Part shown: piece by piece, positions 17,942-59,968 of the stretch
How positions within the stretch are numbered: position 1 is the first letter of the stretch
How the letters are laid out: the number at the start of each line of letters is the position of its first letter
Made by a program: the position numbers and the translations under genes
IMG/VR virus record: IMGVR_UViG_3300021399_000119
Coordinates: 51,544-115,543 of that record
DNA from: a virus
Lineage: Duplodnaviria > Caudoviricetes
Length of the DNA: 64,000 bases
Strand: one strand, 5' to 3'
Notes under the pieces: model-generated
What the model saw: only the letters and a program-made list of their open reading frames with translations
The model's database searches: none
Told to the model about the DNA's origin: nothing

Positions 17942-17970
17942 ATTATAACATAAAAAAAAGAGCTTGTCAA
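17942..17970 (-). promoter_or_regulatory. sigma70-type promoter overlapping a terminator hairpin
   Basis: TTGACA-17-TATAAT; the -35 box lies in one arm of the inverted repeat 17957-18013. Confidence 0.85.
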
Positions 17971-18013
17971 TAGAAAAATTAAAAAATATTTTTTTTCTAT
18001 TAACAAGCTCTTT
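17957..18013 (-). terminator. terminator-like inverted repeat
   Basis: aaaagagcttgt.aatagaaaaa / tttttctatt.acaagctctttt. Confidence 0.6.
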
Positions 18014-18029
18014 TGTTAAAATTCTTATT

Positions 18030-18488
18030 TTATAGTGGTTTACCACTGCTTAATTTAGATGATTTAAGTTCTTTAGATTCAATTGCACTACTAGTAGAAT
18101 TAACACTAGAAGGGAAAGATGCATAACGACAAGTTGGTGTATACGGATAAAATAAACACCATTGACAAGGAATGTCTCCAGCAGTAGTCTTATCTCCATG
18201 CAAATAATGATAATTTGGACAAGTTTCATCACAACCAAGTCTAGGCTCTGGAACTGGCCATCCACTTGTTCCATCTTTTGTTAGCGTTGGAATATAATCT
18301 TTTAAATTATTATCTAAATAATGTTTACATTTAACCTCTACATAAATAGGTTTTTCTTCAAGATTGGCCTTTTCCATGATCTTTTCTACTTTTTGAGCCA
18401 TATCTTTAATTTGTTTTTTGGCAGATTCAAAAAGTTCTTTATATTTACACACTCCATCGTGTTTACATACGTTACATAGTTGTTCCAT
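18030..18488 (-). CDS. Cys-rich hypothetical protein
   Basis: CNVCKHDGVCK...C; CDETC...CQWC...C. Confidence 0.7.
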   Translation of the reverse strand: MEQLCNVCKHDGVCKYKELFESAKKQIKDMAQKVEKIMEKANLEEKPIYVEVKCKHYLDNNLKDYIPTLTKDGTSGWPVPEPRLGCDETCPNYHYLHGDKTTAGDIPCQWCLFYPYTPTCRYASFPSSVNSTSSAIESKELKSSKLSSGKPL

Positions 18489-18490
18489 AA

Positions 18491-19414
18491 TTATTCCTCC
18501 ATGATTGTTTCAATAAGATATTCTCTATGATTATGAGGCTCCAAGCTCATATCTTCATTTATAACTAAGACATTACATCCATAAGTCGCTGCAGTGCAAG
18601 CATCAATACCAATTAGTCCTGGATATTTTTTAGAAATAAAAATAGGATTAAAATCGCGATAATTATATTTTTTATCCTCTAATGTGTTCCAAAAATCTGA
18701 TGTGTGCCAATGTCCACAAACTACAATTCTATTTTTTAGTTCTTCAGAATCTTTTGTGTCTAAATAAATTTTATATGGGCACTCCCACGCAGCTTCTCTC
18801 CATTCTCGACTAGTAAGTCCATATTGCCTCCAATTTTCGCGCACACTATGTTTTACGCCCTCATCCTTAATATCTATTTCAGTAGGAATAAAAGCATGTA
18901 CGAAGATATAAGGGCCTAATTCATAATATGGAACCCACTCATCTGATTTTAGCCATTTTAATATTTCATTGATTTTACGATTATGATATAATCTATGTTC
19001 TAATTTATCTCTTTTTTCTAAATATTTATTATATTTTTCTTGAAAAGCAGGAGTCCCCCACAATGAATATATTAAAATATCTTCTTTTCTTTTTTCTTCT
19101 TCATAATCTTTTCCAATAATTTTGAATAAGGTTTGATATGTGCCATTGTGCAAATCATGATTCCAACATTCTTCTCTTTTTACTAACGCTTCTAATAGTT
19201 CTTCATGATTTCCTCTGATTAATATTCTTCGTTCTTTTGGAAAGTTTCTTAAAAAATTGTAAACTTCTAAAGGCTGGTCTCCTCTATCAAATATATCTCC
19301 GCAAACAATAAGTATATGGTCGGGATTTTCTTCTTCAAAGCCAGCCTTTAATAAAGCTTCATGAAAAATATCATAGAAACCATGAATATCTGAGGTAACA
19401 AAATACTTTTTCAT
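18491..19414 (-). CDS. calcineurin-like metallophosphoesterase
   Basis: SDIHG, GDIFDRG, RGNHE, FVHA and GHWH motifs. Confidence 0.93.
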   Translation of the reverse strand: MKKYFVTSDIHGFYDIFHEALLKAGFEEENPDHILIVCGDIFDRGDQPLEVYNFLRNFPKERRILIRGNHEELLEALVKREECWNHDLHNGTYQTLFKIIGKDYEEEKRKEDILIYSLWGTPAFQEKYNKYLEKRDKLEHRLYHNRKINEILKWLKSDEWVPYYELGPYIFVHAFIPTEIDIKDEGVKHSVRENWRQYGLTSREWREAAWECPYKIYLDTKDSEELKNRIVVCGHWHTSDFWNTLEDKKYNYRDFNPIFISKKYPGLIGIDACTAATYGCNVLVINEDMSLEPHNHREYLIETIMEE

Positions 19415-19425
19415 GTGATTATTTC

Positions 19426-21435
19426 CTACTTCTCATTTACTAAAGCAACTAATTTTTCCAATTCATATGAATGAATTACTTTTACGTTGTCTGATTCAGG
19501 CTTGTAATTATCATCACAAACAACATCTGCATCTGCAGGATTATTTACAACTTCTCCTCTGCACTCAAGAATTGAACCAATGTTAACTTCTAAGAAATTA
19601 GGATCTAAATATTTTTTAATATTGTCTATATTAAAATCATCAACAACCCTTGATTCATCTTCTACCATTAGATTTAAAATTATCATTTCTTTAGTATCTA
19701 AATCAATTACAAATGCCATGCATGCACGAGTATCTCCAAAAACTTTGAATTGGAGTTCAATATTTTTAGGATCCCAAGCTATAGTATTAAGATTATTTTT
19801 ATTTTGATAACCGCAATAGATCTCTCCCTGATTTAGTCTACCAGAGTATCCATGAAAAGATTGAACGATATATTTATAACCCTTGTTTTTCATTTCATCT
19901 AATTTAATATCAAAATATTCTGTTCCAGTTTTGTCCCTACAATCTCCAGAGAAAAGTATACTTTCTCCAAAAGGTTTAACGGAATAATTCCAGAAATTAA
20001 TTGTATCAATGCAAACTATTTCGCCATCTTCTTTTATACAAGAAAGTTCTGAATCAATATCAAAAACGTCTTTCCATGTAACAAAAGTTCTTATATAGTC
20101 TCCTTGACAAGCTAATCTAGAACCAGTTGGAATTACATCAATTCCTTTGCCTCCAGCTGAAGTATTAGAAGGAACGCCTAATTTATAAAATGAATCACTA
20201 ATATAAATCTTGCCTAAAGATGGGAGTTTTCGATAATATTCAAAAATCTTTTCAAGACAAACTTTGTGTAAGAACTTTATTGTTCCAGAACTTAATCTTG
20301 ACTTTCTCCATTTTGTTTCATATTCTGTTTCAACATGATGCTTAACTAAGCGGTTTTTAAAGAAAGTAAATATTCTTGGTTTTCCAGCTTCTTCTTCTAA
20401 AGAATTAACTAATTGATATAATACCATAGGATTTTTTACTTGAATCATATCAATAATTCTAATTGATTCTTCTGGATTAGCTCTAGATAATAACATTCTT
20501 AGATTACGTTCTAATAAAGAACCATTTGAAGCATAAACTTTTGCTGCTTCTAATACCTTACCTTCTTTTAATAAAGCAGTAGCCTTCTTTTGAGGAGAAT
20601 TATGAACAGCACGTGCTAATGTTTTATCATCAAGAGATCTATTAAAAGCAGTTAAAGAAAGTAATTTATTATAGTATTTTACTTGTTTTTTAGTCAAACG
20701 GCAATCTTTAGCATAATGTAAACATTCACTGAGTAATTGTGCAGATTTTGTATCCATAGCATCTGCCAAATCTTTTTTATGTTCTCCAAGCAATTTAATA
20801 GAGAGCTTTACTAAATCTTTTTTATCCAAAAAAGAAGCAAAACTAACATCATATTCTAATAAATTGAAGACATTATCTTTGCATCGAATATCCCATTCAG
20901 GATCTACGAAGCCTTGTTTATACAATTCTTTAAATTCTTCAACCTCATCATTATTAAAAGGTCTTGTATAATCACAGTAAGCTTTTGCGATATCGGCATA
21001 AATATTTACTGCTTGTTCTAAACTAATAATTTTAAATTCACGTAATTTAATTTCATCTCCTTGCTTATATTCAGGAAGATCTTTTTTAAATAATTCTACT
21101 CTATCATAAATACCTGTTCCAGTTTCTACTAAAAAATAAGATACTAATTGTTCTATTAAAAGTTCGCTTTTAGTATAATATCTTGTATCCTGAGGATTTT
21201 TATAAAAAGAATCTGGGACATTAAGAAGAAAAACATCTGATATATCTTCTACCATTTCTGGAGTTAATGCTTGTGGTTTATCTACCACAATTCCAAAATT
21301 AGATAATAAATATGCATTTAAATATGCAACTTTATTAGCATCTAAACATTTTGAATTGTTTTCAGCAAAACACTTCAAATTGCTTGCAACAAGAAAACGT
21401 CTTGTTACTAAAATTTTGTGTAAAAATGTGATCAT
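19426..21435 (-). CDS. large helical protein with C-terminal TerD-like domain
   Basis: Long alpha-helical N-terminus; C-terminal FVTW..FDIDSE..FSGD..EYFDI resembles TerD-type beta-sandwich motifs. Confidence 0.65.
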   Translation of the reverse strand: MITFLHKILVTRRFLVASNLKCFAENNSKCLDANKVAYLNAYLLSNFGIVVDKPQALTPEMVEDISDVFLLNVPDSFYKNPQDTRYYTKSELLIEQLVSYFLVETGTGIYDRVELFKKDLPEYKQGDEIKLREFKIISLEQAVNIYADIAKAYCDYTRPFNNDEVEEFKELYKQGFVDPEWDIRCKDNVFNLLEYDVSFASFLDKKDLVKLSIKLLGEHKKDLADAMDTKSAQLLSECLHYAKDCRLTKKQVKYYNKLLSLTAFNRSLDDKTLARAVHNSPQKKATALLKEGKVLEAAKVYASNGSLLERNLRMLLSRANPEESIRIIDMIQVKNPMVLYQLVNSLEEEAGKPRIFTFFKNRLVKHHVETEYETKWRKSRLSSGTIKFLHKVCLEKIFEYYRKLPSLGKIYISDSFYKLGVPSNTSAGGKGIDVIPTGSRLACQGDYIRTFVTWKDVFDIDSELSCIKEDGEIVCIDTINFWNYSVKPFGESILFSGDCRDKTGTEYFDIKLDEMKNKGYKYIVQSFHGYSGRLNQGEIYCGYQNKNNLNTIAWDPKNIELQFKVFGDTRACMAFVIDLDTKEMIILNLMVEDESRVVDDFNIDNIKKYLDPNFLEVNIGSILECRGEVVNNPADADVVCDDNYKPESDNVKVIHSYELEKLVALVNEK

Positions 21436-21483
21436 AATTTTTTTGCCTTCCTTAAAAATTTTAAAAAATTAGAGTAGCAAAAA

Positions 21484-21538
21484 AGGCCCAGCTAAAATAA
21501 AAATTCCTATATTTTTGTACGAAATAAGCATGGGCTCT
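21484..21538 (-). ncRNA. novel bulged-stem RNA motif, copy A
   Basis: AGAGCCCATGCTTATTTC-...-AGCTGGGCCT; covaries with copies B and C. Confidence 0.7.
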
Positions 21539-21545
21539 GTTGTCT

Positions 21546-21604
21546 AGGCCTAACTTGGGTATTATCCGAAGAATGAAGGGTAAAATGAAATAAGTATAGG
21601 CTCT
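21546..21604 (-). ncRNA. novel bulged-stem RNA motif, copy B
   Basis: AGAGCCTATACTTATTTC-...cUUCGg...-AGTTAGGCCT. Confidence 0.7.
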
Positions 21605-21625
21605 CTAATTTGTTTTAGCTATTTT

Positions 21626-21860
21626 GGTAAGAGGTCGCTACCCCGACGTTTGTTCTTTTTACGAATGAACGAAGTTCCGTCATCTTGCATATACGGATAA
21701 AGATTCACGATTCATTATCAGACCGCCTCTTTTTCGATGTCCGCAGACAGAAGTAACGACGCTATAACCTTAGCGTAAGAGTGTATTTAAACATAACACA
21801 CAAGTCTTTCTATTTGAATTACCAGTTCGAGGTCGAAAAGACCCCGCGGTAAGAACCGCC
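21626..21860 (-). ncRNA. putative ~235-nt structured RNA
   Basis: GC-enriched, ORF-free segment with at least five hairpins. Confidence 0.5.
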
Positions 21861-21864
21861 TAAA

Positions 21865-22164
21865 TTAAAACCAACTTTTATTGGCTTGGCGTTTTTTAAA
21901 ATTATAAGTATTATTTTTACCCATAAACACTTCTTGTCCATCTCTGTGATAAGCAGAAACTTTTCTACCTTCGCGATATTCTTCTTCTGTTATCTCGACA
22001 GTTTTTAGAGGAACTTTGCTATGCTTAACGCTTGGCATCTTTCTTGCTAAACACATAGCATGATAAGCATTTTGAGCTTTAAAATAAAACACAGTTTCTA
22101 AAGAATTACCCATTCCCATGTGACCTCTTTCGACAGTCACTTTATAATATTTTAAGTTTTCCAT
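21865..22164 (-). CDS. basic hypothetical protein (GH.G / P.VKH motif)
   Basis: YYKVTVERGHMG...ARKMPSVKH; GAGGTG RBS. Confidence 0.75.
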   Translation of the reverse strand: MENLKYYKVTVERGHMGMGNSLETVFYFKAQNAYHAMCLARKMPSVKHSKVPLKTVEITEEEYREGRKVSAYHRDGQEVFMGKNNTYNFKKRQANKSWF

Positions 22165-22195
22165 TAAATCACCTCTTTCATTTACTTACACTAAT

Positions 22196-22224
22196 ATTAT
22201 ATCATATTAAGTAAAACATGTCAA
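22196..22224 (-). promoter_or_regulatory. sigma70-type promoter
   Basis: TTGACA-17-TATAAT with TGn. Confidence 0.85.
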
Positions 22225-22275
22225 GAACTTTTTACAAAAAAATAAAAATAAATAAAATCGGCCTTTTATTGACTT

Positions 22276-22366: not shown

Positions 22367-23062
22367 CTAAAGAATATCGTCGATATCTTTGATAACTTCG
22401 TCTACAACTCCAAGTTCTAATAATTGAGCTGCAGGAATGTACCATTGCTTGTCTTTATATTTTTGTAACATCTTTGCATCAATCTTTGAATGAGCCATGA
22501 TGTTTTCTTTGATCAATTTTAATTGTCTTTCGTAATTGCTTTGAGCACTACGAACGTCTTCTGCATTACCTTGCATTTGTGCAGAGCCTTCATGGAATAA
22601 TCCTGTAGAATTTTCTAAAGCAAATCTCTTATGGCCGTTGATTAAAGTCATAAAAGCTCCACTATAAGCAATACCCATATTATAAGTATAAATAGGAGTC
22701 TTGCTAATATTCATAAGTGAGACTAAAGATAAAGTTGCATTTAAATCTCCACCATAGCAATAAATCAATAATTTAATTGGTTTTCTTTCTTCTACTGGAA
22801 GTCCTTTATCTTCTTTGTTCCATTGTAAAATTTGTTTCTCAATATTTAAAATAGTTGGTGAAATTGAATTTTCTTCAATATTAATTTCTAAGTCAATCCA
22901 AATTGTTCTATCTTTTAAATTTGAAATAAATAAATTCTCTGCGTGTAATTCTAAAGCGTCTTTTGAACCATCTTTAGCGAATTGATCCATGACATCGTCC
23001 ACAATCTTATCAATATCAAGTGGTGCGCTTGTCTCTAATACTATATTTTTGTTTTGTTTCAT
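22367..23062 (-). CDS. clpP: ClpP-like serine protease subunit
   Basis: IKLLIYCYGGD, GIAYSGA (catalytic Ser), KRFALENSTGLFH, LELGVVDEVI. Confidence 0.88.
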   Translation of the reverse strand: MKQNKNIVLETSAPLDIDKIVDDVMDQFAKDGSKDALELHAENLFISNLKDRTIWIDLEINIEENSISPTILNIEKQILQWNKEDKGLPVEERKPIKLLIYCYGGDLNATLSLVSLMNISKTPIYTYNMGIAYSGAFMTLINGHKRFALENSTGLFHEGSAQMQGNAEDVRSAQSNYERQLKLIKENIMAHSKIDAKMLQKYKDKQWYIPAAQLLELGVVDEVIKDIDDIL

Positions 23063-27207: not shown

Positions 27208-28575
27208 CTAAAGTTTTTTCTTTTTTATAAAATTCATCAAGACATCATGGTCATTTTCAATTTGTTCGTCAATAACAGCCTTCAATAACAAATTTAAGGC
27301 TTTCCCAATTTGTTCCCCTTGCAAACCAATTTGCATCATGTCATAACCATTGACCTTTAATTTCTTAAGGGTGAAGCATTGGTCTTCATTTAGAATTTGA
27401 TCCAAGATATCATTCAATTGATTGAACTTAGAATATTGCCATGTTTTGAAAAATTTATGATCTCTTACATCAGCAAGTTTTAAAACAAACAATTTTCTTA
27501 AGCGTTGTTCGTTTCCATCAAATTTTGTTAATTTTCTTTTTACCCATTTAGTATTTACTTTTGTTGGGTCATTATGATAACGAATTAAAAGAATAATTTC
27601 TTCAATTTCTTCTTTACTATATTTTAGACGACGAAGAATGCCATAAGCAATTTCTGCACCTTTTATATCGTGATTATAAAAAGTTATTTTCTTTTTATTT
27701 TCATCATAAGCAAATGTAGATGGTTTACCAATGTCATGAAAATAAGCTGCAATTCTTAAAATATAATCTTGCATCTCTATATTTTTTACAACATTACATA
27801 AGTGTTCATATACTTCACTATTGTGATAAGAAATTTCTTTGATAGGTTCCATACATGGAATTAATTCAGGAATAATAACACTCATAATATCTTTATATTC
27901 CTTTAATAAATAAGAAAGATTATTTGAATCTGCGCATCCCATCATTTTATTAAATTCTACACGAACTCTTTCTCTGGATACTCTATCTAAAGTTTCTTTT
28001 AACTCTCTCATAGCTTTTGCTGTCTCTGTTTCAATAGAAAAACCTAATTGAGCAGAAAATCTTAAAGCTCTTAATATTCTTAAACTATCTTCTTGAAATC
28101 TATGAATCGGTGTACCGACACATTTCACAACTTTATTTTTTAGGTCTTCTAAACCTCCGTAATAATCAATCACATTACCATTTTTATCACATGCTAAAGC
28201 ATTGATAGTAAAATCTCTTCTTGCTAAATCTTCTTGTAAAGACCTAACAAAAGTAACAGAATCTGGATGACGGCCATCTGAATAGGCACCGTCTGTTCTA
28301 AAAGTAGTAATTTCTCTACCTTCTTCTCCTGTCATTACAGTTACTGTTCCATGTTGTAAACCAGTGGGAATAATTCTATATCCTTTAAATACTTCTATTG
28401 TTTCCTCTGGAGTAGCACTAGTTGTGATGTCATAGTCATTTACTGTTCTACCCAATATAGAATCTCGGACAGCTCCTCCTACAACATAAGCCTCATAACC
28501 AGCTTTTTCTAATTTTTTTAAAAGAGATATTACATCTCGTGGTAATATGATACTTTTATTTTTATTTAGCATCAT
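27208..28575 (-). CDS. cca: CCA-adding tRNA nucleotidyltransferase with HD domain
   Basis: VGGAVRD, DYDITT, EITTFR, DLARRDFTINA, EDSLRILRALRF, HDIGKP. Confidence 0.93.
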   Translation of the reverse strand: MMLNKNKSIILPRDVISLLKKLEKAGYEAYVVGGAVRDSILGRTVNDYDITTSATPEETIEVFKGYRIIPTGLQHGTVTVMTGEEGREITTFRTDGAYSDGRHPDSVTFVRSLQEDLARRDFTINALACDKNGNVIDYYGGLEDLKNKVVKCVGTPIHRFQEDSLRILRALRFSAQLGFSIETETAKAMRELKETLDRVSRERVRVEFNKMMGCADSNNLSYLLKEYKDIMSVIIPELIPCMEPIKEISYHNSEVYEHLCNVVKNIEMQDYILRIAAYFHDIGKPSTFAYDENKKKITFYNHDIKGAEIAYGILRRLKYSKEEIEEIILLIRYHNDPTKVNTKWVKRKLTKFDGNEQRLRKLFVLKLADVRDHKFFKTWQYSKFNQLNDILDQILNEDQCFTLKKLKVNGYDMMQIGLQGEQIGKALNLLLKAVIDEQIENDHDVLMNFIKKKKL

Positions 28576-28592
28576 ATTGTTATTTCCTTTTC

Positions 28593-28862
28593 TTAAAAAT
28601 TGTATTTTACGTTTTCTATATATTTGTAATTTAGTATTGTTATTTGTATTTCCACATCAGCAGAAGATGCTTGTGGGTTTTGCTTAATTATTTCTCTCAT
28701 TATGAATAGTCGGAGATCTTCGAGAAAATCCTGTATGTTAGAAGCGTTTACCTCTTTTTCCCAATCAAATACCCCATTACCAGAACCACCTGAGATAATT
28801 TTTCTGTTTTGTTTATTTATAATATCACTTAAATAAGAAAAAAAGTATAGAAATTTTTTCAT
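28593..28862 (-). CDS. hypothetical protein
   Basis: 89-aa ORF in the operon. Confidence 0.6.
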   Translation of the reverse strand: MKKFLYFFSYLSDIINKQNRKIISGGSGNGVFDWEKEVNASNIQDFLEDLRLFIMREIIKQNPQASSADVEIQITILNYKYIENVKYNF

Positions 28863-28883
28863 AATTTTACGCCTTTCCTAAGA

Positions 28884-29825
28884 TTAATAATTAATTAATT
28901 TTTCTATATATTCTCTTCCTTCGTCAACAAAACGAGGAATATTATAATCTAAAATCCATTTAGATATTTCTTTAACTTTAATTTCCTCACCTTTAAGTTC
29001 CATTTCACCATCTATTTTCTTTAAATAAAATATTGGACAAAAGTAAAAACCAAGATTGTCAAAATAAAAGTAACCTATTCTATCTTTATAAGTAATTTGA
29101 GAATTATTTTCTACAACTTGCCCATCATCTAAAAGATATTTTACATATTTAATGCAGCAAGTTCCACGCTTTTGTGGTGTTGGCAAATTACCCCAAATAA
29201 TTCCTTTTTCAAGTTCTAACTTAGCTACTAATTCTTTACAAGATTTACCTTCTAACTCTTTTTGTGAATAGTTGACCTGAGCTACTGATAAAATAGAATT
29301 TCTTTCTGCATCTTTTTGTCGCCAAAGTACACAATTAGTAACTTCTTCTTTTGGAATATTAAATACTCTGCTATCAAATAAAGCGCCTTTTCTACGAGCT
29401 CTATCATAAACTAAATCATAATTATCTGCTTCACCTTTTTCAGCAAGTTGGTCAAGATAAAATTCATTAAAGTATTTATTAAAAGCAAATGTTGCCATAG
29501 CTGCTGAAATAGAAGTCATTTTTTGAACTTCGTAATCAAACCATGCAGAAGTATCTAATTTATTATAATCAACTAATACTAATGTAATTTCATCTGATTG
29601 AGTATAACCTAACACACAACCTTGAATATTTTCACATAAATATTTCATAGTTTCTTGCATAGTTTTCATAAAAATATCATCAAATGGTTTTTTAAATCCT
29701 CTTGTAAAAGTATGGAAGGCTTTACCATCTAACCTAATAATTACAGGCATTCTACGAGTAAGCTTTGTTTTAGAGACTTCCTCATAATATGTCTTCATTC
29801 TATTTCCTAAATTATCTTTAACCAT
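28884..29825 (-). CDS. thg1: tRNA-His guanylyltransferase Thg1-like protein
   Basis: RMKTYYE, IRLDGKAFHTFT, YTQSDEI, FDSR, WRQKDAERNSI. Confidence 0.93.
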   Translation of the reverse strand: MVKDNLGNRMKTYYEEVSKTKLTRRMPVIIRLDGKAFHTFTRGFKKPFDDIFMKTMQETMKYLCENIQGCVLGYTQSDEITLVLVDYNKLDTSAWFDYEVQKMTSISAAMATFAFNKYFNEFYLDQLAEKGEADNYDLVYDRARRKGALFDSRVFNIPKEEVTNCVLWRQKDAERNSILSVAQVNYSQKELEGKSCKELVAKLELEKGIIWGNLPTPQKRGTCCIKYVKYLLDDGQVVENNSQITYKDRIGYFYFDNLGFYFCPIFYLKKIDGEMELKGEEIKVKEISKWILDYNIPRFVDEGREYIEKLINY

Positions 29826-29861
29826 ATTTGTTTCCTTTTCTAAGATCTATTTTATATTTTA

Positions 29862-30341
29862 TTATTTTCCCCAAATATCGCGCCCATACATATAATAATC
29901 ATCTTCATCGAATTCATCTCTGATTCGAATTCCATCTCGTTTCCGAATTTCATTTCGTTTTTTCTCTTTTTCAATTGCATCATTAATTACATGCCAAGCC
30001 TCATAACCAGAAACGCATTTGTAACTCTTTCCTTGTCTTGCATACCATTCTTTTTGTTTGTCAGTTAATTCCTGAGCATAAACATATTTTTCATTGAGGT
30101 CTTCAAACTTAACTATCTCATAAGTATCTACTTCATAATCAAAGTCATCTTTATTATATACAGTAGTATAACTTCCCAAAATAACATAGTTAGGTCCAAA
30201 ACCGATGACCTTATAAGAATGATACTTACTATAAATATATTTGCAATCTGAATCATCACGACAAACCATGCAAGGAATTAGGCTCATAAGTTCTTCATAA
30301 GTTCTGTTTTTAATTACATCTTTAAAAAGAATTTTTTCCAT
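29862..30341 (-). CDS. hypothetical protein
   Basis: ORF from MEKIL. Confidence 0.7.
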   Translation of the reverse strand: MEKILFKDVIKNRTYEELMSLIPCMVCRDDSDCKYIYSKYHSYKVIGFGPNYVILGSYTTVYNKDDFDYEVDTYEIVKFEDLNEKYVYAQELTDKQKEWYARQGKSYKCVSGYEAWHVINDAIEKEKKRNEIRKRDGIRIRDEFDEDDYYMYGRDIWGK

Positions 30342-31047
30342 TTTTTTCTCCTGATTTAAGATTTTTTTCAAAGTTTTTTAATATTTCAGAATTATAATTT
30401 TCTGGTTCATAATTAATTATAGCAGCTTGTCCATAAGCTTCGTAATTTTTAATTCTACCACAAATTGTGCAATATTGCATTGTTTCAATAACGCCAGCTT
30501 CATCATGATAATTTTTAGAAACAAGATGTTTATCACAGTTATGAAACGGATTTATTTCAAGTGGCATAGTTTTTGTTAGAAGACTTCTTGTACTTGTTTT
30601 ATTTAAAATCTTTCCTTTACTTTTAGCTTCTTCAAGCTCTTTTTTAATCGTGTATCTTTCTAACCAACCATATTTAATATATTCACAAGTAATTCGCACA
30701 ATATTTGCATGCCACTTAAAAATAGTCTTTATACTTTCATTTTCACATTCTGCAAATGTGTTTATTTTTTTCTTATTTACTTTAAGATAGTCATCCACAA
30801 TTGCCCCTGTATATAAATCGACAATGATTTGCGAATTACAAGTAATACCAGCTAATTCAGGTAGGATTGGATTATCTTGATGATTTAAATCTTTTGTATA
30901 TAAAGCATAGAAAGGATTATCTGAGCGATTATATCTATTGTACTTAAGTATATTTTGGAAATATCTATCAATCATTTTTGGACAAGGAGCAGTTATATTA
31001 CTTTTCCCTGTATCAATACCCATTCCTCTTTTTCTTTTCTTTCCCAT
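30322..31047 (-). CDS. hypothetical protein with C-terminal CxxC
   Basis: 241-aa ORF; C.H...CTICG. Confidence 0.7.
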   Translation of the reverse strand: MGKKRKRGMGIDTGKSNITAPCPKMIDRYFQNILKYNRYNRSDNPFYALYTKDLNHQDNPILPELAGITCNSQIIVDLYTGAIVDDYLKVNKKKINTFAECENESIKTIFKWHANIVRITCEYIKYGWLERYTIKKELEEAKSKGKILNKTSTRSLLTKTMPLEINPFHNCDKHLVSKNYHDEAGVIETMQYCTICGRIKNYEAYGQAAIINYEPENYNSEILKNFEKNLKSGEKNGKNSF

Positions 31048-31072
31048 AATTATATACCTTTCTTAAAAATTT

Positions 31073-31429
31073 CTAACTAATTGACCAAGCGCATTTATAT
31101 CGACAACAGTCTTCTAATTCTTGTGCTATTTGTGGCGATATTTTTTCAACTTCTTTCCACTTAGTTTTTAAAAAAGTATAAACTTCTTTTGTTTCTTTTG
31201 ATGTGAATTTTCCATAAGGATTATTAGCCCACTTCATAAAAACTTTTGGAGTTCCTTCTTTAAATTCATATTTAAGTGGCTTTTCCATAAAATATTCTGA
31301 CATAGTGCATTCTGAAGCGGGTTTCCTTTGTGTAGTCATTGTGCCACCAAATAATTCTACTATTTTTTTCATTTCATCATTAAATCTAGGATAACTAGCT
31401 GAACCGCAAAAAATAAAATCCATTCCCAT
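31073..31429 (-). CDS. hypothetical protein
   Basis: 118-aa ORF; GMDF...GSASYPRF. Confidence 0.7.
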   Translation of the reverse strand: MGMDFIFCGSASYPRFNDEMKKIVELFGGTMTTQRKPASECTMSEYFMEKPLKYEFKEGTPKVFMKWANNPYGKFTSKETKEVYTFLKTKWKEVEKISPQIAQELEDCCRYKCAWSIS

Positions 31430-31444
31430 AATTATATACCTTTC

Positions 31445-32470
31445 TTATAATTCAAATTTTTCGTCTTTGAATTCGCCGTTAATAATTCTCTTATTAACTG
31501 ACATTACCCATTCTTCAATTGCCTTCATATTTGGCTTTTCAGGTAATTTTGAACTTTCATAAGCTTCATTCATTCTTTTATCTAATGAATCAACCATATC
31601 ATAAAATTCTTTAGTCATATTACCATTTTCGTCCATATACTTACCATTTCTAATATCCATTAATAAATCGTGTTCTTTTTCACGATAAGTATGAACTTCA
31701 CCAGTTTCTAACATTTCAATACACATTAATAATAATCTGACAAGATGCATAGCATGTTTATTCAAATGTGCGTCATCTTTCTTTCTATTTCTATTTAATA
31801 ATTCTTTATAGTTTCTTGTTGTATTAGAAACTGTTGAGTAGAAATCTTCAAATTCTCCGCTTTCAATATCAATATCTAACTTAAATCTTAATTTGCCAGC
31901 CTCGTCAACATAAGCAAAAGCAGGATTGATGTCTGTATTATGTTGATTATTAAAAGTAGTTAATGCGCTTTGCAAAGAAATAGAAATATGTTCATTTTTT
32001 TCTTTTTCAGGATAATTATCACGAGCTAAAGCATTTTGTAATCTTTTTAAATTAGCTTTTGCGTAACCGCCAAATGTATATTTGCATCTCTTACTTAAAA
32101 ATAAATCTTTATGATCTAATAATTCTTGCCCTAATTTAGAAACATATAAATATTGGTCAGGATTTAAACCAATAATTTCAACAATATTAGGATTGTTTTG
32201 CATCAATAATTGAATCATTTTATTAAAAGCAAAAACAGTAGTATCAGTCTTTTCATTAATAAATTGTTCAAACTTTTGATAACCAATTAATTCCTCTGGC
32301 TTTTCAATAGCAATACCTCTAATATCTAAATCAGAAGTTGGTACATTTGTTCCATACGCATGCGATCCACCCAACCCCAATAATATAATATTATTACCAA
32401 GATGTTCGTTTTCCCATAAAAATTTATATTCAGGTTTCTTTAATTCTTGCTTGTATGTATCTATTGACAT
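31445..32470 (-). CDS. Pol-beta-family nucleotidyltransferase (Nuc-transf/RlaP type)
   Basis: GGSHAYGTNVPTSDLDIRG, NPNIVE, KHAMHLVRLL. Confidence 0.88.
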   Translation of the reverse strand: MSIDTYKQELKKPEYKFLWENEHLGNNIILLGLGGSHAYGTNVPTSDLDIRGIAIEKPEELIGYQKFEQFINEKTDTTVFAFNKMIQLLMQNNPNIVEIIGLNPDQYLYVSKLGQELLDHKDLFLSKRCKYTFGGYAKANLKRLQNALARDNYPEKEKNEHISISLQSALTTFNNQHNTDINPAFAYVDEAGKLRFKLDIDIESGEFEDFYSTVSNTTRNYKELLNRNRKKDDAHLNKHAMHLVRLLLMCIEMLETGEVHTYREKEHDLLMDIRNGKYMDENGNMTKEFYDMVDSLDKRMNEAYESSKLPEKPNMKAIEEWVMSVNKRIINGEFKDEKFEL

Positions 32471-32886
32471 TATTTCTTCTGTCCTTTCTCTAGAATAGTT
32501 ACTTCTGCCATATTATCCATAAGATGTTCTAATTGCCAAGATTTCCACGCCGATTCAAGAGAACTTCTAGTGTACTCTTTAACGTCATCTAATTTAAATA
32601 CAGCTCCTATAAAAGAAATAGCGAGAAGACCTATGACTCCATCTGACATGAAAAAATCTATATAAGTATCTCCAAATTCTTTTTGAAAATCAACTAATGT
32701 ATCAGGCAGCTGTTTTTGATTCTCTATAACTTGTGTAACAAATTTTTCTTTTGCATCTTGAGTTAATATAAGTATTCCTGTATCTAAAATTTCTTTTTGA
32801 AAAATATCCAATACTTTTTTACTAAATTCTTCTGCAACATATTCTAAATAATTGTGGTTGTATTTAAGTGGTTTCATAATTACCAA
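32470..32886 (-). CDS. hypothetical protein
   Basis: 138-aa coupled ORF. Confidence 0.65.
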   Translation of the reverse strand: MVIMKPLKYNHNYLEYVAEEFSKKVLDIFQKEILDTGILILTQDAKEKFVTQVIENQKQLPDTLVDFQKEFGDTYIDFFMSDGVIGLLAISFIGAVFKLDDVKEYTRSSLESAWKSWQLEHLMDNMAEVTILEKGQKK

Positions 32887-33722
32887 TCGCTTTCGTTAAA
32901 ATTATTATAATTATATAAAGTAAACTGATCGTTCATTTTTGCAATTTTGTCTTTTATACCAAAAGAGTAATAAGACACTCCCTCTTGAGTTAAACGTTGC
33001 CATGTGGGGATTTCATAACAAGGATTATAATATATTTTATTAAAATATCTAGTATAATCTAAATCTGGATATTCTTCTATAATTTTATCTAATACGGCTA
33101 ATGTCCATTGTACATCACTTAAAGCATCATGGTCTTGCTCTTGAGATGCAGACACTACTCCTAATCTATGAGCTACATCTTCTAACTTATATTGAGAAAA
33201 ATATGCCTTATTAAGAGAACGATTATATCCGTATTTAATATAACTTGGAATTGATCCATAAATATCTAAAAATATACCCATAACGTCTACTAATTGAATA
33301 GATTCAAAAGGCAATCCACATCTTTTGTAAGCTTCTTTTAAAGTTCTTACGTCGTATGCAATATTATAACCAATAATTAGCCCATCTGTAAAACCATATT
33401 GAACTAATTCACATTCACTAATTCTTTGGTCTTTATATTCTGGACTTTGCAAGTGATCTTTTGTAACTCCTGTTAAATCTGTAATAGAAAAGAATTTATC
33501 TTTAGTTTGAATCATATCCGTTTCAGGATTATATTGCCCCTGATTTACATATTTAGACAGCTCTGTTAAATTATGTTGTTCATCATAACGTAAAGCCCCC
33601 ACTTGAATAGGCATCCCAACATTTCCATCTTTAGAGCTTGAAGTTTCAAAATCTAAAATAGCAAAAGGTTTTCCCTCTAGTTTAAAAGCTTTTATTACTT
33701 TTTCTGCACTAATTGTTTTCAT
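32880..33722 (-). CDS. DEDDh 3'-5' exonuclease
   Basis: LDFETS, YNIAYD, HDALSD. Confidence 0.88.
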   Translation of the reverse strand: MKTISAEKVIKAFKLEGKPFAILDFETSSSKDGNVGMPIQVGALRYDEQHNLTELSKYVNQGQYNPETDMIQTKDKFFSITDLTGVTKDHLQSPEYKDQRISECELVQYGFTDGLIIGYNIAYDVRTLKEAYKRCGLPFESIQLVDVMGIFLDIYGSIPSYIKYGYNRSLNKAYFSQYKLEDVAHRLGVVSASQEQDHDALSDVQWTLAVLDKIIEEYPDLDYTRYFNKIYYNPCYEIPTWQRLTQEGVSYYSFGIKDKIAKMNDQFTLYNYNNFNESDW

Positions 33723-34786
33723 TTATTAATTTGCTCACTTTCTGTTCCACAAGCTTCTTTATCTATCTTGTTGAACTCAATTAAATCATGCATCAACACA
33801 TCACCAAAAGTGTTTAACGCTTTTCTTATAGCTTTTTCAGTATTCCAATCGAATGGTCTCATATGATAATTCACATAAGCCAATACTCGAAGTATTTCAT
33901 GTACCTCCAAATCTTTTTGAGGAATTAGTTCTAAATGAGTTAATAACTCATAAGTTCCTACCTCAGCATGACTGTAATAAATAGCTATACCGCTATCATT
34001 ATAACTTTTTGTATAATATTTGCCCCAATCATGCACAATAGCCGCAACAGGCATCCAACGTTGTCCATAAAAATTTTGTATTCTTTCAGAAACTAATTGT
34101 TGACAAGCAACCATATGGAAACCTAAAGTGTATTTATGGTGAGGATTTTCTTGATTAAAATTAATCATTTTGAACATTAACGCTGCATAATCCTTTGCAT
34201 TGTGTTTTATTTGCACTATAGGATTAAAAGTAATTCCATTAATAATTATAATTCTAGTAAAACCCTCTTCACTAAAAGGAATACAAAATTTTTTTCTATA
34301 CGAATAAACAACTTCTTCTGGAATAATTTTCCCTGTTTTTTCTGCTCTATCTTTAACACGTTGTAGACACACATCAAAAGGAGTTGCCATAATAACTGCA
34401 GTTACAACATAAGTTAAATTTGGATAAATTTTTTCCCATTTCTTTATATGATTAAATGTTTCTGCTCTATCTTTAATTGTGATGTTAGTATTATCTAAGA
34501 TCACAGGCCTATTTTCTTCTCTTCCAAAATAAATGTCCATAATCAAATTATCAAGGTCTTGATAAAAACGTTTAAAAATTTGATTATTATCTTCTTCAGG
34601 AAAACGAACTCTATAGTCATCTGCACTAAAATACCAACTTGGAGTCATTTTTGCATAAGTACTTTTCCCGCTTCCTTGAAGACCGACCATCATAAATAAA
34701 TCAATTATTTCAGGACCATTTGTTGGTCTTCCAAATTCATCTACTATTTTTGAACCTTTAAACATACTTATTCTTCTCCTCCCCAA
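33719..34786 (-). CDS. polynucleotide kinase (P-loop) fused to HD phosphohydrolase
   Basis: GLQGSGKST, SADDYR, LDNTN; C-terminal NPHH...HDWGK...HAEVG...YHM. Confidence 0.88.
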   Translation of the reverse strand: MGRRRISMFKGSKIVDEFGRPTNGPEIIDLFMMVGLQGSGKSTYAKMTPSWYFSADDYRVRFPEEDNNQIFKRFYQDLDNLIMDIYFGREENRPVILDNTNITIKDRAETFNHIKKWEKIYPNLTYVVTAVIMATPFDVCLQRVKDRAEKTGKIIPEEVVYSYRKKFCIPFSEEGFTRIIIINGITFNPIVQIKHNAKDYAALMFKMINFNQENPHHKYTLGFHMVACQQLVSERIQNFYGQRWMPVAAIVHDWGKYYTKSYNDSGIAIYYSHAEVGTYELLTHLELIPQKDLEVHEILRVLAYVNYHMRPFDWNTEKAIRKALNTFGDVLMHDLIEFNKIDKEACGTESEQINK

Positions 34787-36090
34787 GAATTGATATTGTT
34801 ATAAATATCAGGGTCAATTTGAGACATTTTGGTATATTGATAAACCCCTTTGCCACGATCTCTTTTTAAGAAATTATTAGGTTTTCCTAAATAAACATTT
34901 CTAACAGCCCCTTTAAGATTATTAGGAACGCTATTTTCTACCCAAATCATGAAATCTTTTCTTTCTCCTTTTGGAGCCATTTCATAATATTCTTGAGTCA
35001 TTTTTTGATTAAATTTTTCATAATCATAAATAATGGCAGCAATTTTTTGGATATCAGCTTTAAAAGTTTCTGGAACTTTTGCTAATAAATCATCATATAC
35101 CCCATCTGCAATGGCACGAATTAATACATTAGGAGCACTTAATTTACTAATTATTTTATGAACTTTGACATAATCGTCTGTTTTTAATTTAAATAAATGT
35201 CCATCAATATTAATAACAAAACCTTCCATCTCATCAGATTTTTTTGTTTTTATGATTTCCATAACTTCGTCTAAAGAACCTTTAAATACAGAGGTTACTT
35301 TAATCTTTTTTACTTGTGCAAGACTACGTAAAACTGCATAAGATGCTAAGATGCCAGTTTCATTATATCTTAATCCTATTAAGTACAATCCTTCTTCTGC
35401 TTTTGAATATTTTACAACAATACGATTATCTACTGAAATATACTCAAACATGCAAGTATATTCACGAAATTCTTTTACAAATTCACGCAAATTAGCATTT
35501 TCAGGTGCATAGAATACTTTTTTAACATCTCTTAATACAGTAGCTTGTTCATCAGAATCATCTAAAGAGCCACTTGTGGTGATAAAAAATTCGTTTTCTC
35601 CAATATATCTAGCAATACAAATTGATCCATCAAGTTTATTACTGAATTCAATATTTACAGCTTTTTCCATTAATCTTTTAACAACGTCCCAGCTTGTAGA
35701 TTCTAATTCTCCAACATTAAAGAATTTGTCAAAAGGACAAGTAATAATGGTCTCTTTTTTCACATCAATAGTAATACTTCTGCATGATTGTAAAAAACCA
35801 TCCCACGCATTCCATAGTTGGTCTGTAGTTGTCATTCCTTTTTCCTCTGCTAAATCGCTTAAAACAGCTAAGTTGCCGTATTTAAATAATACGGCTGTTT
35901 TATATTGTTTTATAATTAAGAATGGACGAACATCAGACCAAAAAGAATCTTGGGTTTTTTCAATCCACTTGTCAACACAAGTTTTATATCCTGTTGCATC
36001 ATAAATATCTTTAGTTGGACCAACTGCAGATATATAAGATTCTTTTAATCTCATTATTTCCCTGAACACTGGGTTCCATGTAAAATCCAT
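34768..36090 (-). CDS. T4 Rnl1-like RNA ligase
   Basis: PFDKFFN, KLDGS (motif I), FEY, EGFV, FKLK. Confidence 0.9.
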   Translation of the reverse strand: MDFTWNPVFREIMRLKESYISAVGPTKDIYDATGYKTCVDKWIEKTQDSFWSDVRPFLIIKQYKTAVLFKYGNLAVLSDLAEEKGMTTTDQLWNAWDGFLQSCRSITIDVKKETIITCPFDKFFNVGELESTSWDVVKRLMEKAVNIEFSNKLDGSICIARYIGENEFFITTSGSLDDSDEQATVLRDVKKVFYAPENANLREFVKEFREYTCMFEYISVDNRIVVKYSKAEEGLYLIGLRYNETGILASYAVLRSLAQVKKIKVTSVFKGSLDEVMEIIKTKKSDEMEGFVINIDGHLFKLKTDDYVKVHKIISKLSAPNVLIRAIADGVYDDLLAKVPETFKADIQKIAAIIYDYEKFNQKMTQEYYEMAPKGERKDFMIWVENSVPNNLKGAVRNVYLGKPNNFLKRDRGKGVYQYTKMSQIDPDIYNNINSWGGEE

Positions 36091-51319: not shown

Positions 51320-51426
51320 ATGGGGGAGTACGGTTTAACTGCTTACTTATACTCCATAAGTGTCTTATGTTCCGTTGCATCCAGAGTTTCGCTGGAACTG
51401 TTTTGGCCTTCAACAGCTCTATTATA

Positions 51427-51487
51427 AGGCCTAGCTAAAAATTGATTACAAGTCAATTGCTTCCCAGCAGAAATAAGCATAGGCTCT
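51427..51487 (-). ncRNA. novel bulged-stem RNA motif, copy C, with tRNA-Thr anticodon-arm mimic
   Basis: AGAGCCTATGCTTATTTC-TGCTgggaAGCA-ATTGActtgtaaTCAAT-TTTT-AGCTAGGCCT. Confidence 0.75.
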
Positions 51488-51492
51488 ATTTA

Positions 51493-51578
51493 TGGTGGGC
51501 AGAGAAGGAGTTGCACCTCCGTTGTTTCTATGTGGCGGATTTACAGTCCGCTGCCCTCGCTACTAGGCATACCTACCC
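51493..51578 (-). tRNA. tRNA-Tyr(GTA)
   Basis: Loop CTGTAAA; variable arm; T-loop TGCAACT; CCA. Confidence 0.9.
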
Positions 51579-58267: not shown

Positions 58268-59968
58268 TTAATAATCTTGTACATTAAATTGAAAATCTTT
58301 AATTGAAATATCTTCTGAATCTTTAATTGAAATATCTTCTAATTTTTCTTTTGTTTCTTTTATTTCTTTTGGTTTTACTTCAACAGCAGTATCATCTACT
58401 AGTGTTTCAATTTCAGGTTTAGTATTATCAACAGTTTGGTCTAAGATATATTCAACATTAGTATCGTTAATGTCTACAATTTCTCCTTCGTTATTAGTAG
58501 CGAAGCAATCTGTTGTTCTACAAGTTGATCTATCAAAATGGATATATAATCTAATATTATTGAAACGTCCACGTCTTACTTTATAAATATGAATAACATG
58601 TGTTGGCTCTAATTCAAATCCTTTAGCAACGTGAGCTGCGATAACTTGTTTATCGGCTTCACGAACAGGAAGTAAAATAGCACCATTATCAACCTTGTCG
58701 GAAATAGATTTAGCTCCACGAAGTAATTGTTGGTCTGCTTCTTTTGCGCTTTTCCATTCCCCGCTTAATTGAGTAGCTGTCCAAATAAAGATATTAAGAC
58801 GTATACATAATTCTTTTAATCTTGTAATAAACATTAAAAGAATCTGATCTTCTCTTAAACCTGAAATACGAGTTTTAGAAGCTCCTTCAGCCATAATTCT
58901 CATACTACTTGCTAAATAATCATAGAAGAAATATTGAACCCCGTACATTTGGTAATATTTCTTTATGATGTTTTCAATATCATCCATATTATAATCACTA
59001 ATACGAACGAAATATAAATCAGCTTTGTCTAATAATTTAGCGGCTTTACGAACTCTCTCTTCTTCTCCTTTATCATAACGACCATCTAAGATATGATGTT
59101 CTGGGACACCTGAAATGCACGACATCCACATTGTTTGAACTTCTTTTAACTCTAATTCAATAGAAATTAATAATGCGGGCTCACGTATTCCTGTTTGTTC
59201 CCATTTACATTTAACAGTATCATAATATTCCCCCACAGCAGTTCTGCATGAAAGTTCAGCTTGTCTCCTAGTTTTGCCTACACCTTGAGCCGAAGATTCG
59301 ATGCATAGCTTTCCTAATATCATACCACGATAAATTGTAGTTAATTTAGGACTTGTAAAAGGTAAACCCATTTCAGGAACTTGTTTTAATTCATCAATTA
59401 AATCTAAAGCTCCATCTCCAGCTTTTCCTTGTACCATGTCTGCTGACATAGAGAACTTTTCTTTTATTTGAGTTAATTGAGTATCAAAATATAATAATAT
59501 ATCGTCAACACTCATTCTGTCAAAGTTCTTTTGCATTTCACTTGCTTTGACAGGGTCTAATATTTGATCGTCATAAATTGGTGTTACATCAAAACCACGA
59601 TTATCAAAATCGTTTAATACGCTCATTTTTTTCATACGCTTGTAGTAATAGTCACGATTTTTTTCGTCTACTAATTCAAGCATTTGTGTAATATAATCTG
59701 GACCTTGATTATCAGAAAAAACCTTATATTGAGTAGGATATGTTTTCAGAAATTGGTCAATATCCATATAAGAAATAGATTGAGCCCCATTGATAGCAAT
59801 ATTTTCTATTGCCCCGAAAAGAATTCGGTGAAATTGGTCTGAAAAATCCTCTATATTAAATTTATATTTACTGTCTGAAAAAAGCATAGGGTCTTTAATA
59901 AGACATCCTAAAACCTGCATTTCAGCCATTTTATCTGCATATCTATGATTTATATTGTTAATTCCCAT
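58268..59968 (-). CDS. dnaB: replicative DnaB-like helicase
   Basis: SAQGVGKT, SIEL, FFYDYL, TATQL, KSISDKVD, KVRRG. Confidence 0.9.
   Translation of the reverse strand: MGINNINHRYADKMAEMQVLGCLIKDPMLFSDSKYKFNIEDFSDQFHRILFGAIENIAINGAQSISYMDIDQFLKTYPTQYKVFSDNQGPDYITQMLELVDEKNRDYYYKRMKKMSVLNDFDNRGFDVTPIYDDQILDPVKASEMQKNFDRMSVDDILLYFDTQLTQIKEKFSMSADMVQGKAGDGALDLIDELKQVPEMGLPFTSPKLTTIYRGMILGKLCIESSAQGVGKTRRQAELSCRTAVGEYYDTVKCKWEQTGIREPALLISIELELKEVQTMWMSCISGVPEHHILDGRYDKGEEERVRKAAKLLDKADLYFVRISDYNMDDIENIIKKYYQMYGVQYFFYDYLASSMRIMAEGASKTRISGLREDQILLMFITRLKELCIRLNIFIWTATQLSGEWKSAKEADQQLLRGAKSISDKVDNGAILLPVREADKQVIAAHVAKGFELEPTHVIHIYKVRRGRFNNIRLYIHFDRSTCRTTDCFATNNEGEIVDINDTNVEYILDQTVDNTKPEIETLVDDTAVEVKPKEIKETKEKLEDISIKDSEDISIKDFQFNVQDY

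Follow-up and report, generated by a model that had tools for sequence, protein, structure and literature searches.

We describe a family of small structured RNAs, here called handle RNAs, that accompanies the gene of a 669-amino-acid (aa) protein composed of a helical part and a TerD-fold domain. The family was analysed from a 64,000-nucleotide (nt) stretch of DNA (the window; positions 51,544 to 115,543 of IMG/VR virus record IMGVR_UViG_3300021399_000119), which belongs to an AT-rich phage of the Caudoviricetes. The record is 115.5 kb long, its completeness is rated 71%, and the phage has at least 16 tRNA genes. Comparative sequence analysis confirmed that a motif found three times in the window is a real structured RNA gene of a large, previously undescribed family. 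The core interpretation of a preliminary description of this DNA, in which such an RNA family is paired with the 669-aa protein, is supported by the results. From synteny only, we infer that the protein binds the RNA; a particular element of the RNA would then be read, and the pair may act in tRNA damage, repair or phage-host conflict.

Structured RNA motif in the window

The family motif, AGA-N5-U-RCU-UAUUUC...AGY-N5'-C, occurs three times on the minus strand. The pattern AGAGCCYATRCTTATTTC gave three exact matches, all on that strand (21521-21538, 21587-21604 and 51470-51487), against a chance expectation of 0.31, and the two tandem copies with a third copy about 30 kb away in the tRNA array were thereby recovered as originally described. 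The whole 115.5-kb virus record contains no further motif copy. A fourth match, at 59877 with two mismatches, was rejected as a chance hit: it lies within a DnaB-like open reading frame (ORF) and lacks a 3' partner. The elements at issue are the following (R1 is a covariance model of the family):

21546-21604, minus strand: handle RNA copy 1, short form (pattern match, fold, R1 46.4 bits)
21484-21538, minus strand: handle RNA copy 2, short form (pattern match, fold, R1 54.3 bits)
21479-21484, minus strand: T run directly after copy 2; the 669-aa gene has its start codon about 45 nt further on
19426-21435, minus strand: 669-aa gene, presumed RNA partner (ORF list, AlphaFold2 (AF2) model)
51427-51487, minus strand: handle RNA copy 3, short form; part of the tRNA array, 5 nt downstream of tRNA-Tyr (R1 52 bits)

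Copy 1 reads AGA-GCCUA-U-ACU-UAUUUC, a 31-nt cargo, and AGU-UAGGC-CU. The stem of copy 2 is formed by GCCCA/UGGGC and GCU/AGC, and the cargo of copy 3 consists of a GCUGGGAAGC hairpin and the anticodon arm AUUGA-CUUGUAA-UCAAU. The bulged terminal stem proposed earlier was recovered as the minimum-free-energy (MFE) fold in all three copies. Two details of the earlier drawing did not hold. No stable hairpin is predicted where a 'cUUCGg hairpin' had been placed in copy 1, and the outermost end pair of the stem, between positions 1 and 65 (A/U), is unpaired in 70 of 91 family sequences, so that the stem consists of G2:C, then five and then three base pairs. Because the T run follows copy 2 directly, the stem of this copy doubles as a terminator-like hairpin. 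At gathering score, Rfam matched tRNAs alone in the window; a permissive Rfam scan of 21400-22250 returned noise only, and none of the three copies was called a tRNA by ARAGORN or the Rfam tRNA model.

Covariation across the RNA family

Relatives of the 669-aa protein were gathered from viral contigs and their loci were scanned for the motif. The 18-mer pattern matched 92 viral stretches, and 80 loci were listed; 35 of these 80 are chance matches without a 3' partner. Among 53 unique occurrences of RCTTATTTC in the relatives, 46 are preceded by GA-N5-N. Every one of these 46 5' halves has a perfect 8/8 complement (AGY-N5') at most 260 nt away, as compared with 2.3 complements expected when the five stem letters are shuffled, and no complement was found for any of the seven occurrences that lack the GA. 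The 46 halves represent 25 different stem types. Compensatory changes are present at seven of ten pairs (28 short copies; 97 model hits), one of which appears as U:A 45 times, A:U 28 times, C:G seven times and G:C five times, and pairing collapses when the partners are slid out of register. The unpaired UAUUUC is invariant in this phage lineage. The covariation claimed for the motif is thus strong, both by pair counts and by the complement test, which does not presuppose pairing.

Association of handle RNAs with the protein gene

At 20 distinct viral loci, where the protein is 47-59% identical, the exact motif adjoins the gene, up- or downstream and often as arrays on both sides, with up to four tandem copies carrying differing cargos. 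Variants of the handle accompany the gene at other levels of identity:

39-43% identity (L023, L028): every copy has UACUUC, and the gene is flanked
38-46% identity (contigs of Clostridia metagenome-assembled genomes): inner stem UCU/AGA; some handles nested in an outer stem with a U run, between promoter and Shine-Dalgarno sequence
24-30% identity (L035-L037): one to three copies directly upstream, GCUA-N8-UAYUUC...N8', bulge missing in most

The handle is present at most of 20 loci from metagenome-assembled genomes, and the bacterial form of the constant element is AGCUA-N8-UACUUC...GAUAUC. In species-representative genomes we found 279 loci of the gene, mostly from rumen and gut Bacillota and including the cultured isolates Lachnospiraceae bacterium C6A11 and AC2031, Eubacterium ruminantium FB3002 and Ruminococcaceae bacterium YRB3002. 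The handle was searched for at the best 80 of these 279 loci, 76 of which had enough upstream sequence. It lies at most 400 nt upstream of the gene and on the same strand at 66 of the 76 loci, versus 10-15 of 76 in three control regions; the long tRNA-like form (see below) is present at 36 of the best 80. Apart from the handle RNA, every neighbour of the gene varies among loci. Within one bacterial family the gene occurs in two or three of 201 sampled genomes. A covariance model of the long form gave two strong matches in 151 genomes of that family (105 and 95 bits), both beside the gene, and the third carrier has a short-form handle in the leader of the gene. The long-form model R2 also produced a cloud of 48-60-bit matches spread over many genomes; those checked are junctions of tandem tRNA genes (Pro/Gly) and not handle RNAs. 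Co-occurrence of the motif with homologs of the 669-aa protein, on which the preliminary description depended, therefore extends through phages and bacteria down to about 25% identity.

Cargo modules and kinship with YrlA RNAs

The handle is a terminal stem of 8-9 base pairs closing on UAYUUC, which is unpaired and invariant; in the lineage of the present phage, A3 and U9 are bulged. Between the halves of the handle lies a cargo of 19 to about 120 nt, which may be a small hairpin, a copy of an anticodon arm, or a complete, circularly permuted tRNA-like module. In the long cargos, a small hairpin (anticodon-like or V) is followed by a T arm (GGUUCGAAUCC), a 7-bp stem with a short closing loop and a D arm (GUAGCUCAGUGGUAGAGC). 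Applied independently to 44 long forms, RNAalifold returned the terminal stem, the T arm, the 7-bp closed acceptor-like stem and the D arm; 19 of the 24 pairs show compensatory changes. The three copies of the window are short forms without the permuted module, that is, miniaturised members consisting of handle and hairpin.

YrlA is a bacterial and phage Y RNA that partners Ro60 and contains a permuted tRNA-like module (PMC4201824). The Rfam YrlA model (RF02553) matches long-form relatives with 32-47 bits (E-values of 2e-7 to 4e-3; gathering cut-off 69), aligning the T arm, closed stem and D arm, and its outer stems find no pairing. The window itself has no YrlA match. YrlA is the only Rfam family that touches the long-form cargo, below threshold, and no family gives the motif an unrelated function, which had been named as a possible refutation. 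The V loop of YrlA opens with a conserved YUAY (PMC4201824), to which UUAU/UUAC within UAYUUC corresponds. By contrast, the GNCGAAN0-1G element near the YrlA 5' end, the presumed Ro60 contact (PMC4201824), is absent from handle RNAs, whose 5' parts read AGA-N5-U-RCU-UAUUUC or AGCUA-N8-UACUUC. At the level of sequence and predicted structure, handle RNAs are thus shown to be a YrlA-like family related to bacterial Y RNAs through the tRNA-like module.

A YrlA RNA would be expected to lie about 4 kb or less from a TROVE/Ro60 gene, on the same strand. No TROVE domain (PF05731) was detected in the present record and five related phage records (completeness of at least 90% in three), nor in five bacterial carrier genomes or 201 genomes of the one bacterial family, with the domain detected in controls in both cases.

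Likeness of the cargos to tRNA parts is not confined to the long forms. The cargo of copy 3, read previously as a tRNA anticodon arm, is identical at 19 of 21 positions to the anticodon arm of the phage's own tRNA-Thr(UGU), and the two mismatches form one compensatory pair, C:G to U:A. Among 257 unique cargos, 46 open with a hairpin whose 7-nt loop reads YU-NNN-RN, T loops not being counted, versus 6.5 from shuffles; other cargo loops read as Lys-UUU, Pro-UGG and further anticodons. In one bacterial handle RNA (L228, 2302-2416) the tRNA-like cargo is not permuted and has its D arm, anticodon arm and T arm in the usual order, which suggests that cargos have been swapped or re-acquired from tRNAs.

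Helical and TerD-fold protein

The protein family comprises 862 cluster representatives at E-values of at most 1e-3, mostly of 650-720 aa. An AF2 model built with 52 relatives (predicted local distance difference test score (pLDDT) of 90.4, predicted template modelling score (pTM) of 0.91) consists of a helical N-terminal part (residues 1-405, of which 277-405 are solenoid-like), a TerD-fold beta-sandwich (about 444-606) and a small C-terminal alpha/beta part. The TerD likeness suspected earlier is borne out for the C-terminal part: the VIA comparison gave Z 13.9 to 2qz7 (root-mean-square deviation of 2.2 Å over 147 residues) and Z 11.8 to 2kxt, and Foldseek matched TerD structures with probability 1.00. 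Residues D459, D461, S496-G497-D498, G504, E506 and D509 are invariant and all lie inside the TerD-fold domain; these acidic and glycine residues may correspond to the Ca-binding residues of TerD. At the sequence level, neither the protein nor the 52 relatives matched Pfam TerD (PF02342) at E-values of at most 0.1, and only 22% of a related ESM Atlas cluster carries Pfam TerD. At the same threshold the protein has no Pfam match of any kind. PHROGs returned one unknown family (3e-7), and a search of PDB sequences with the family profile found no match.

The helical part, which folds with pLDDT 88 when modelled alone, contains invariant arginines (R158, R310, R354 and R377) that would suit nucleic-acid binding and prove nothing. 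Neither Foldseek nor VIA, run with the whole model and with residues 1-405, listed a Ro60 chain, a result that does not show that the folds differ, and no TROVE domain (PF05731) was found by sequence at E-values of at most 0.1 in the protein or 52 relatives. By these searches, the 669-aa protein is not recognisably a Ro60/TROVE homolog.

A partial match was found to NF041916 of NCBIfam (the MXAN_6230/SCO0854 RING family), which matches residues of about 288-600 at 6e-16 and distant members at up to 4e-31. The match scores 57.8 bits against a cut-off of 600 and covers profile positions 396-707 of 842. Structural likeness to the same family was also found in the ESM Atlas (template modelling score 0.78). 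Pfam scans of the protein and its relatives revealed no RING domain. A search for longer fused forms of the protein found none, which is weak evidence, and longer family members of 721-897 aa have no Pfam domain.

Coverage of the locus in RNA libraries

Four metatranscriptome runs from four studies (sheep gut, bovine gut and unspecified gut metagenome) each yielded one whole contig, 300-347 nt long and 98-100% identical to the window:

21461-21796: RNA contig X15, running through copy 2
21537-21836: RNA contig X16
21532-21878: RNA contig X17
21534-21840: RNA contig X19

All four contigs span the ORF-free region and copy 1, and one adds copy 2. The ends of X16, X17 and X19 fall within 6 nt of each other (21532-21537), just 3' of copy 1. 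The runs contain small shares of the sequence words of the window, and the habitats are only what the matched contigs show. Over the coding flanks there are only short, partly fitting pieces from RNA libraries, and missing cover was not counted as evidence. That the contigs of four studies both start and stop inside the RNA region is consistent with a stable transcript, at least about 300 nt long, whose end is at the handle or handles before the 669-aa gene; DNA carry-over is formally possible as their source. The preliminary description had further recognised a structured RNA of about 235 nt upstream of copy 1. Coverage in RNA libraries agrees with such an RNA. The structure is less convincing, as the region folds modestly better than shuffles (MFE z -2.2), has no Rfam match and shows no similarity to the locus of any relative.

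X15 and X17, which come from two studies, share an adjacent double change (T>C, C>T) at 21676-21677, inside the 235-nt RNA. X19 has three changes, all in the cargo of copy 1 (21571, 21573 and 21576). The handle sequence is unchanged in all four runs.

Layout of the locus and its surroundings

The remaining features of the locus and the relevant features elsewhere in the window are as follows:

22196-22224, minus strand: sigma-70-type promoter (TTGACA, 17 nt, TG-TATAAT), consensus 12/12 plus TG extension, ahead of the 99-aa ORF
21865-22164, minus strand: 99-aa ORF (ORF list)
21605-21864, minus strand: ORF-free region of about 260 nt upstream of copy 1 (RNA-library contigs)
18491-19414, minus strand: NinI-like metallophosphoesterase, 307 aa (Pfam Metallophos 2.4e-13; phrog_246 1.3e-27)
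18030-18488, minus strand: 152-aa Cys-rich ORF (ORF list)
17942-18011, minus strand: 9-bp inverted repeat (AGAGCUUGU...ACAAGCUCU) with T run at the end of the 152-aa gene (sequence)
17942-17970, minus strand: next perfect promoter past the 152-aa gene (sequence)
27208-36090, minus strand: tRNA-repair cluster; by Pfam CCA-adding enzyme/HD, Thg1-like, RlaP, RNase T-type exonuclease, AAA_33 kinase and T4 Rnl1-type RNA ligase
51496-51578, minus strand: tRNA-Tyr (anticodon GUA, long variable arm), the sixteenth tRNA (Rfam tRNA model 43.9 bits; missed by ARAGORN)

The consensus scan confirmed the promoter, the ORF list bears out the first description of all four ORFs (99, 669, 307 and 152 aa), and the 307-aa product indeed matches a metallophosphoesterase family. 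The terminator placed after the Cys-rich gene fared less clearly: an inverted repeat and a T run are there, but the loop is long and the consensus scan made no call. This terminator and the following promoter overlap, since the -35 box of the latter (17970-17942) lies inside the long loop of the repeat. The 99-aa product had no match in Pfam and PHROG searches, and megablast of the region against 50,697 phage records found none. Because the 99-aa, 307-aa and 152-aa genes are not conserved beside homologs of the 669-aa gene (a metallophosphoesterase is near it in just a few relatives of the locus), the 'operon' of the first reading is local. A gene for a ClpP-like protease (Pfam CLP_protease, 1.8e-20) lies at 22367-23062 on the minus strand, just upstream of the locus promoter.

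Handle RNAs away from the gene lie within tRNA arrays and on the tRNA strand. In the window, copy 3 is directly followed by a hairpin, AGAGCUGUU-GAAGGCCAAA-ACAGUUC (51395-51420, minus strand), that has a handle-like start (AGAGC...) without UAUUUC and may be a decayed or minimal handle. After it come about 75 nt of further ORF-free, hairpin-rich DNA and then tRNA-Trp. In two tRNA genes of related phages (L010, 6594-6742, and L019, 5626-5777), the Rfam tRNA alignment shows about 80 nt inserted into the anticodon loop; these tRNAs are possibly intron-bearing. ARAGORN also called a phage-encoded tmRNA with the tag SPEYRIRLLTNTKW (L028, 6180-6571) and a tRNA-SeC (UCA) in phage G006 (L087, 2900-2995).

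The RNA-repair setting proposed earlier is seen in places only. The tRNA-repair cluster of the phage is located 6-15 kb from the locus. In Lachnospiraceae bacterium C6A11, the gene and an upstream long-form RNA are flanked on either side by an RtcB ligase gene of the same orientation. Of 100 loci, six have RtcB as a neighbour, on both sides of the gene in L171 and next to it in the five others, and in the complete phage G005 RtcB is encoded in the tRNA array, between handle RNAs.

Proposed mechanism and alternatives

We propose that the helical and TerD-fold protein would recognise the handle, forming a ribonucleoprotein (RNP) analogous to that of Ro60 and Y RNA, and that the cargo would present tRNA parts to tRNA-binding enzymes, such as repair ligases, nucleases, and modification or processing enzymes. 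The setting may be tRNA damage, repair or phage-host conflict. The leader copies would be transcribed from the promoter of the gene, with the handle stem providing their terminator, and the supply of RNA and protein would thereby be coupled. Binding of the protein to the leader copies could in addition tune read-through, that is, autoregulate the gene. We consider this joint mechanism, in which the protein binds the handle, the cargo shows tRNA parts to enzymes and the leader copies couple RNA supply to gene expression, to be the probable one.

Several observations weigh against it. Adjacency does not prove an RNP, and binding is deduced from gene order. The expression evidence consists of assembled contigs, from which exact ends, strand and level are not derivable. 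Many loci come from related gut and rumen lineages, and the counts therefore overstate the number of independent events. The adjacency of RtcB is rare at six of 100 loci, some of which are interrelated. No likeness between the helical part and the Ro60 ring was detected; the matches of this part are generic and HEAT/TOG-like, cover residues 277-405 and reach Z of at most 7.3, which is within noise for helical repeats. TerD domains are not known as RNA binders. Finally, phage G006 (230 kb, rated 100% complete) has a 55-bit handle RNA (L087, 683-744), located in a tRNA array between tRNA-Asn and tRNA-Ala, and no homolog of the protein, with positive controls detected; it is the sole complete record of this kind that was seen.

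The leader position of many copies could also be explained by a purely cis-regulatory element, an operator or attenuator relying on tRNA mimicry of the thrS type or sensing another factor. No trans-acting RNP would then be needed, and the array copies would be by-products or have another use. Such an element would account for the nearly constant position, 50-440 nt upstream on the same strand, for the nesting of the handle in an outer stem with a U run between promoter and Shine-Dalgarno sequence in several lineages, and for the T run that ends copy 2 so close to the start codon. It does not explain why many copies lie far from the gene in tRNA arrays, or downstream of it, why up to four tandem copies have differing cargos, why the RNA contigs of four studies are restricted to the RNA region, or why the long cargo is homologous to that of the trans-acting YrlA RNAs, and we consider it unlikely. 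Quite unlikely in our view is that the RNAs work without the 669-aa protein, through host factors (RNase P, PNPase, tRNA-modifying enzymes or a host partner of Y RNAs), the gene being a mere neighbour. The RNA without the gene in G006 and the abundance of handle RNAs in tRNA arrays speak for this possibility, as does the fact that tRNA enzymes act on YrlA RNAs as substrates (PMC4201824). Against it, the adjacency is kept in bacterial chromosomes without tRNA arrays though other neighbours change, and gene and RNA coincide despite both being rare (about 1.5% of one family). Moreover, the loop is either UAUUUC or UACUUC in all copies of a given lineage, as would be expected if these had a single reader in common.

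It is also conceivable, though highly improbable, that handle RNAs are tRNA genes in permuted or split form, matured into working tRNAs by cleavage in the closed acceptor loop and joining of the ends, or else processing or terminator signals such as RNase III sites. Long forms do contain all arms of a tRNA, though permuted; an RNA ligase, a kinase and a CCA-adding enzyme are among the products of the phage; YrlA of M. smegmatis is cut by RNase P and receives CCA (PMC4201824); and U runs follow some handles. However, the acceptor-like stems are closed by 4-10-nt loops and lack discriminator and CCA, the short forms keep the handle without T, D and acceptor arms, and neither ARAGORN nor the Rfam tRNA model made a call on the copies of the window. 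Were the handles processing sites alone, there would be no need for UAYUUC to be invariant and unpaired, or for a fixed position next to a single protein gene.

Comparison with known systems and significance

In the Y RNAs of metazoans and Deinococcus, a conserved, bulged helix is recognised by Ro60, and the loops tether effectors such as PNPase. Handle RNAs share this modularity, in that the constant bulged stem would be kept for one protein and the variable module would serve others, but there is no likeness in stem sequence and the presumed partner is another one. Several features are shared with YrlA and Ro60 (RF02553; PMC4201824): the RNA combines a permuted tRNA-like module with a terminal stem that serves (here presumably) for protein binding; past this stem stands a conserved YUAY; RNA and presumed protein partner are encoded as neighbours on one strand; a link to the RtcB repair ligase is occasionally seen; and both systems occur in phages. 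On the other hand, handle RNAs score 32-47 bits where the YrlA cut-off is 69, GNCGAAN0-1G is replaced by another constant element, and the neighbouring protein has a TerD domain where Ro60 has a vWA domain with a metal site, its helical part not being recognisable as the HEAT ring of Ro60. In the carriers searched, a TROVE gene was not found. Many members are also miniaturised to handle and hairpin, unlike YrlA, with several copies per genome, some of them in tRNA arrays.

The MXAN_6230/SCO0854 family (NF041916) likewise combines a distal helical part with a TerD domain, but its RING domain is missing here and the score is far under the family cut-off. In Escherichia coli, the thrS leader is a tRNA-mimic operator of an autoregulated gene. 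Handle RNAs resemble such operators in that a copy of a tRNA arm stands in a gene leader and could bind the gene's product; they differ in that the mimics also exist as free-standing genes with a constant handle and that the protein is not an aminoacyl-tRNA synthetase. Full-text literature searches turned up nothing on SCO0854/MXAN_6230 and no report that pairs YrlA-like RNAs with a TerD protein.

That the handle family keeps the tRNA-like module of YrlA, swaps the Ro60-binding element and sits by a different protein, in carriers where searches turned up no Ro60 gene, points to a second kind of Y-RNA particle. More tentatively, there may be a whole Ro60-independent class of such particles, in which small cargo libraries of large phages, displaying entire tRNA mimics or individual anticodon arms, would serve as decoys or adaptors for tRNA-cutting defence nucleases or repair enzymes and gut Bacillota would use the particle together with RtcB; we see this as possible but doubtful. 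Cultured carriers exist, so that the system is directly testable. Y RNAs have so far been defined through their partner Ro60. If the pair described here is an RNP, Y-RNA-type particles would not be tied to Ro60, the TerD-domain family, which spans at least 862 clusters and includes about 280 bacterial species loci as well as many large phages of gut and rumen, would gain its first functional lead, and a natural modular scaffold displaying tRNA parts would be revealed.

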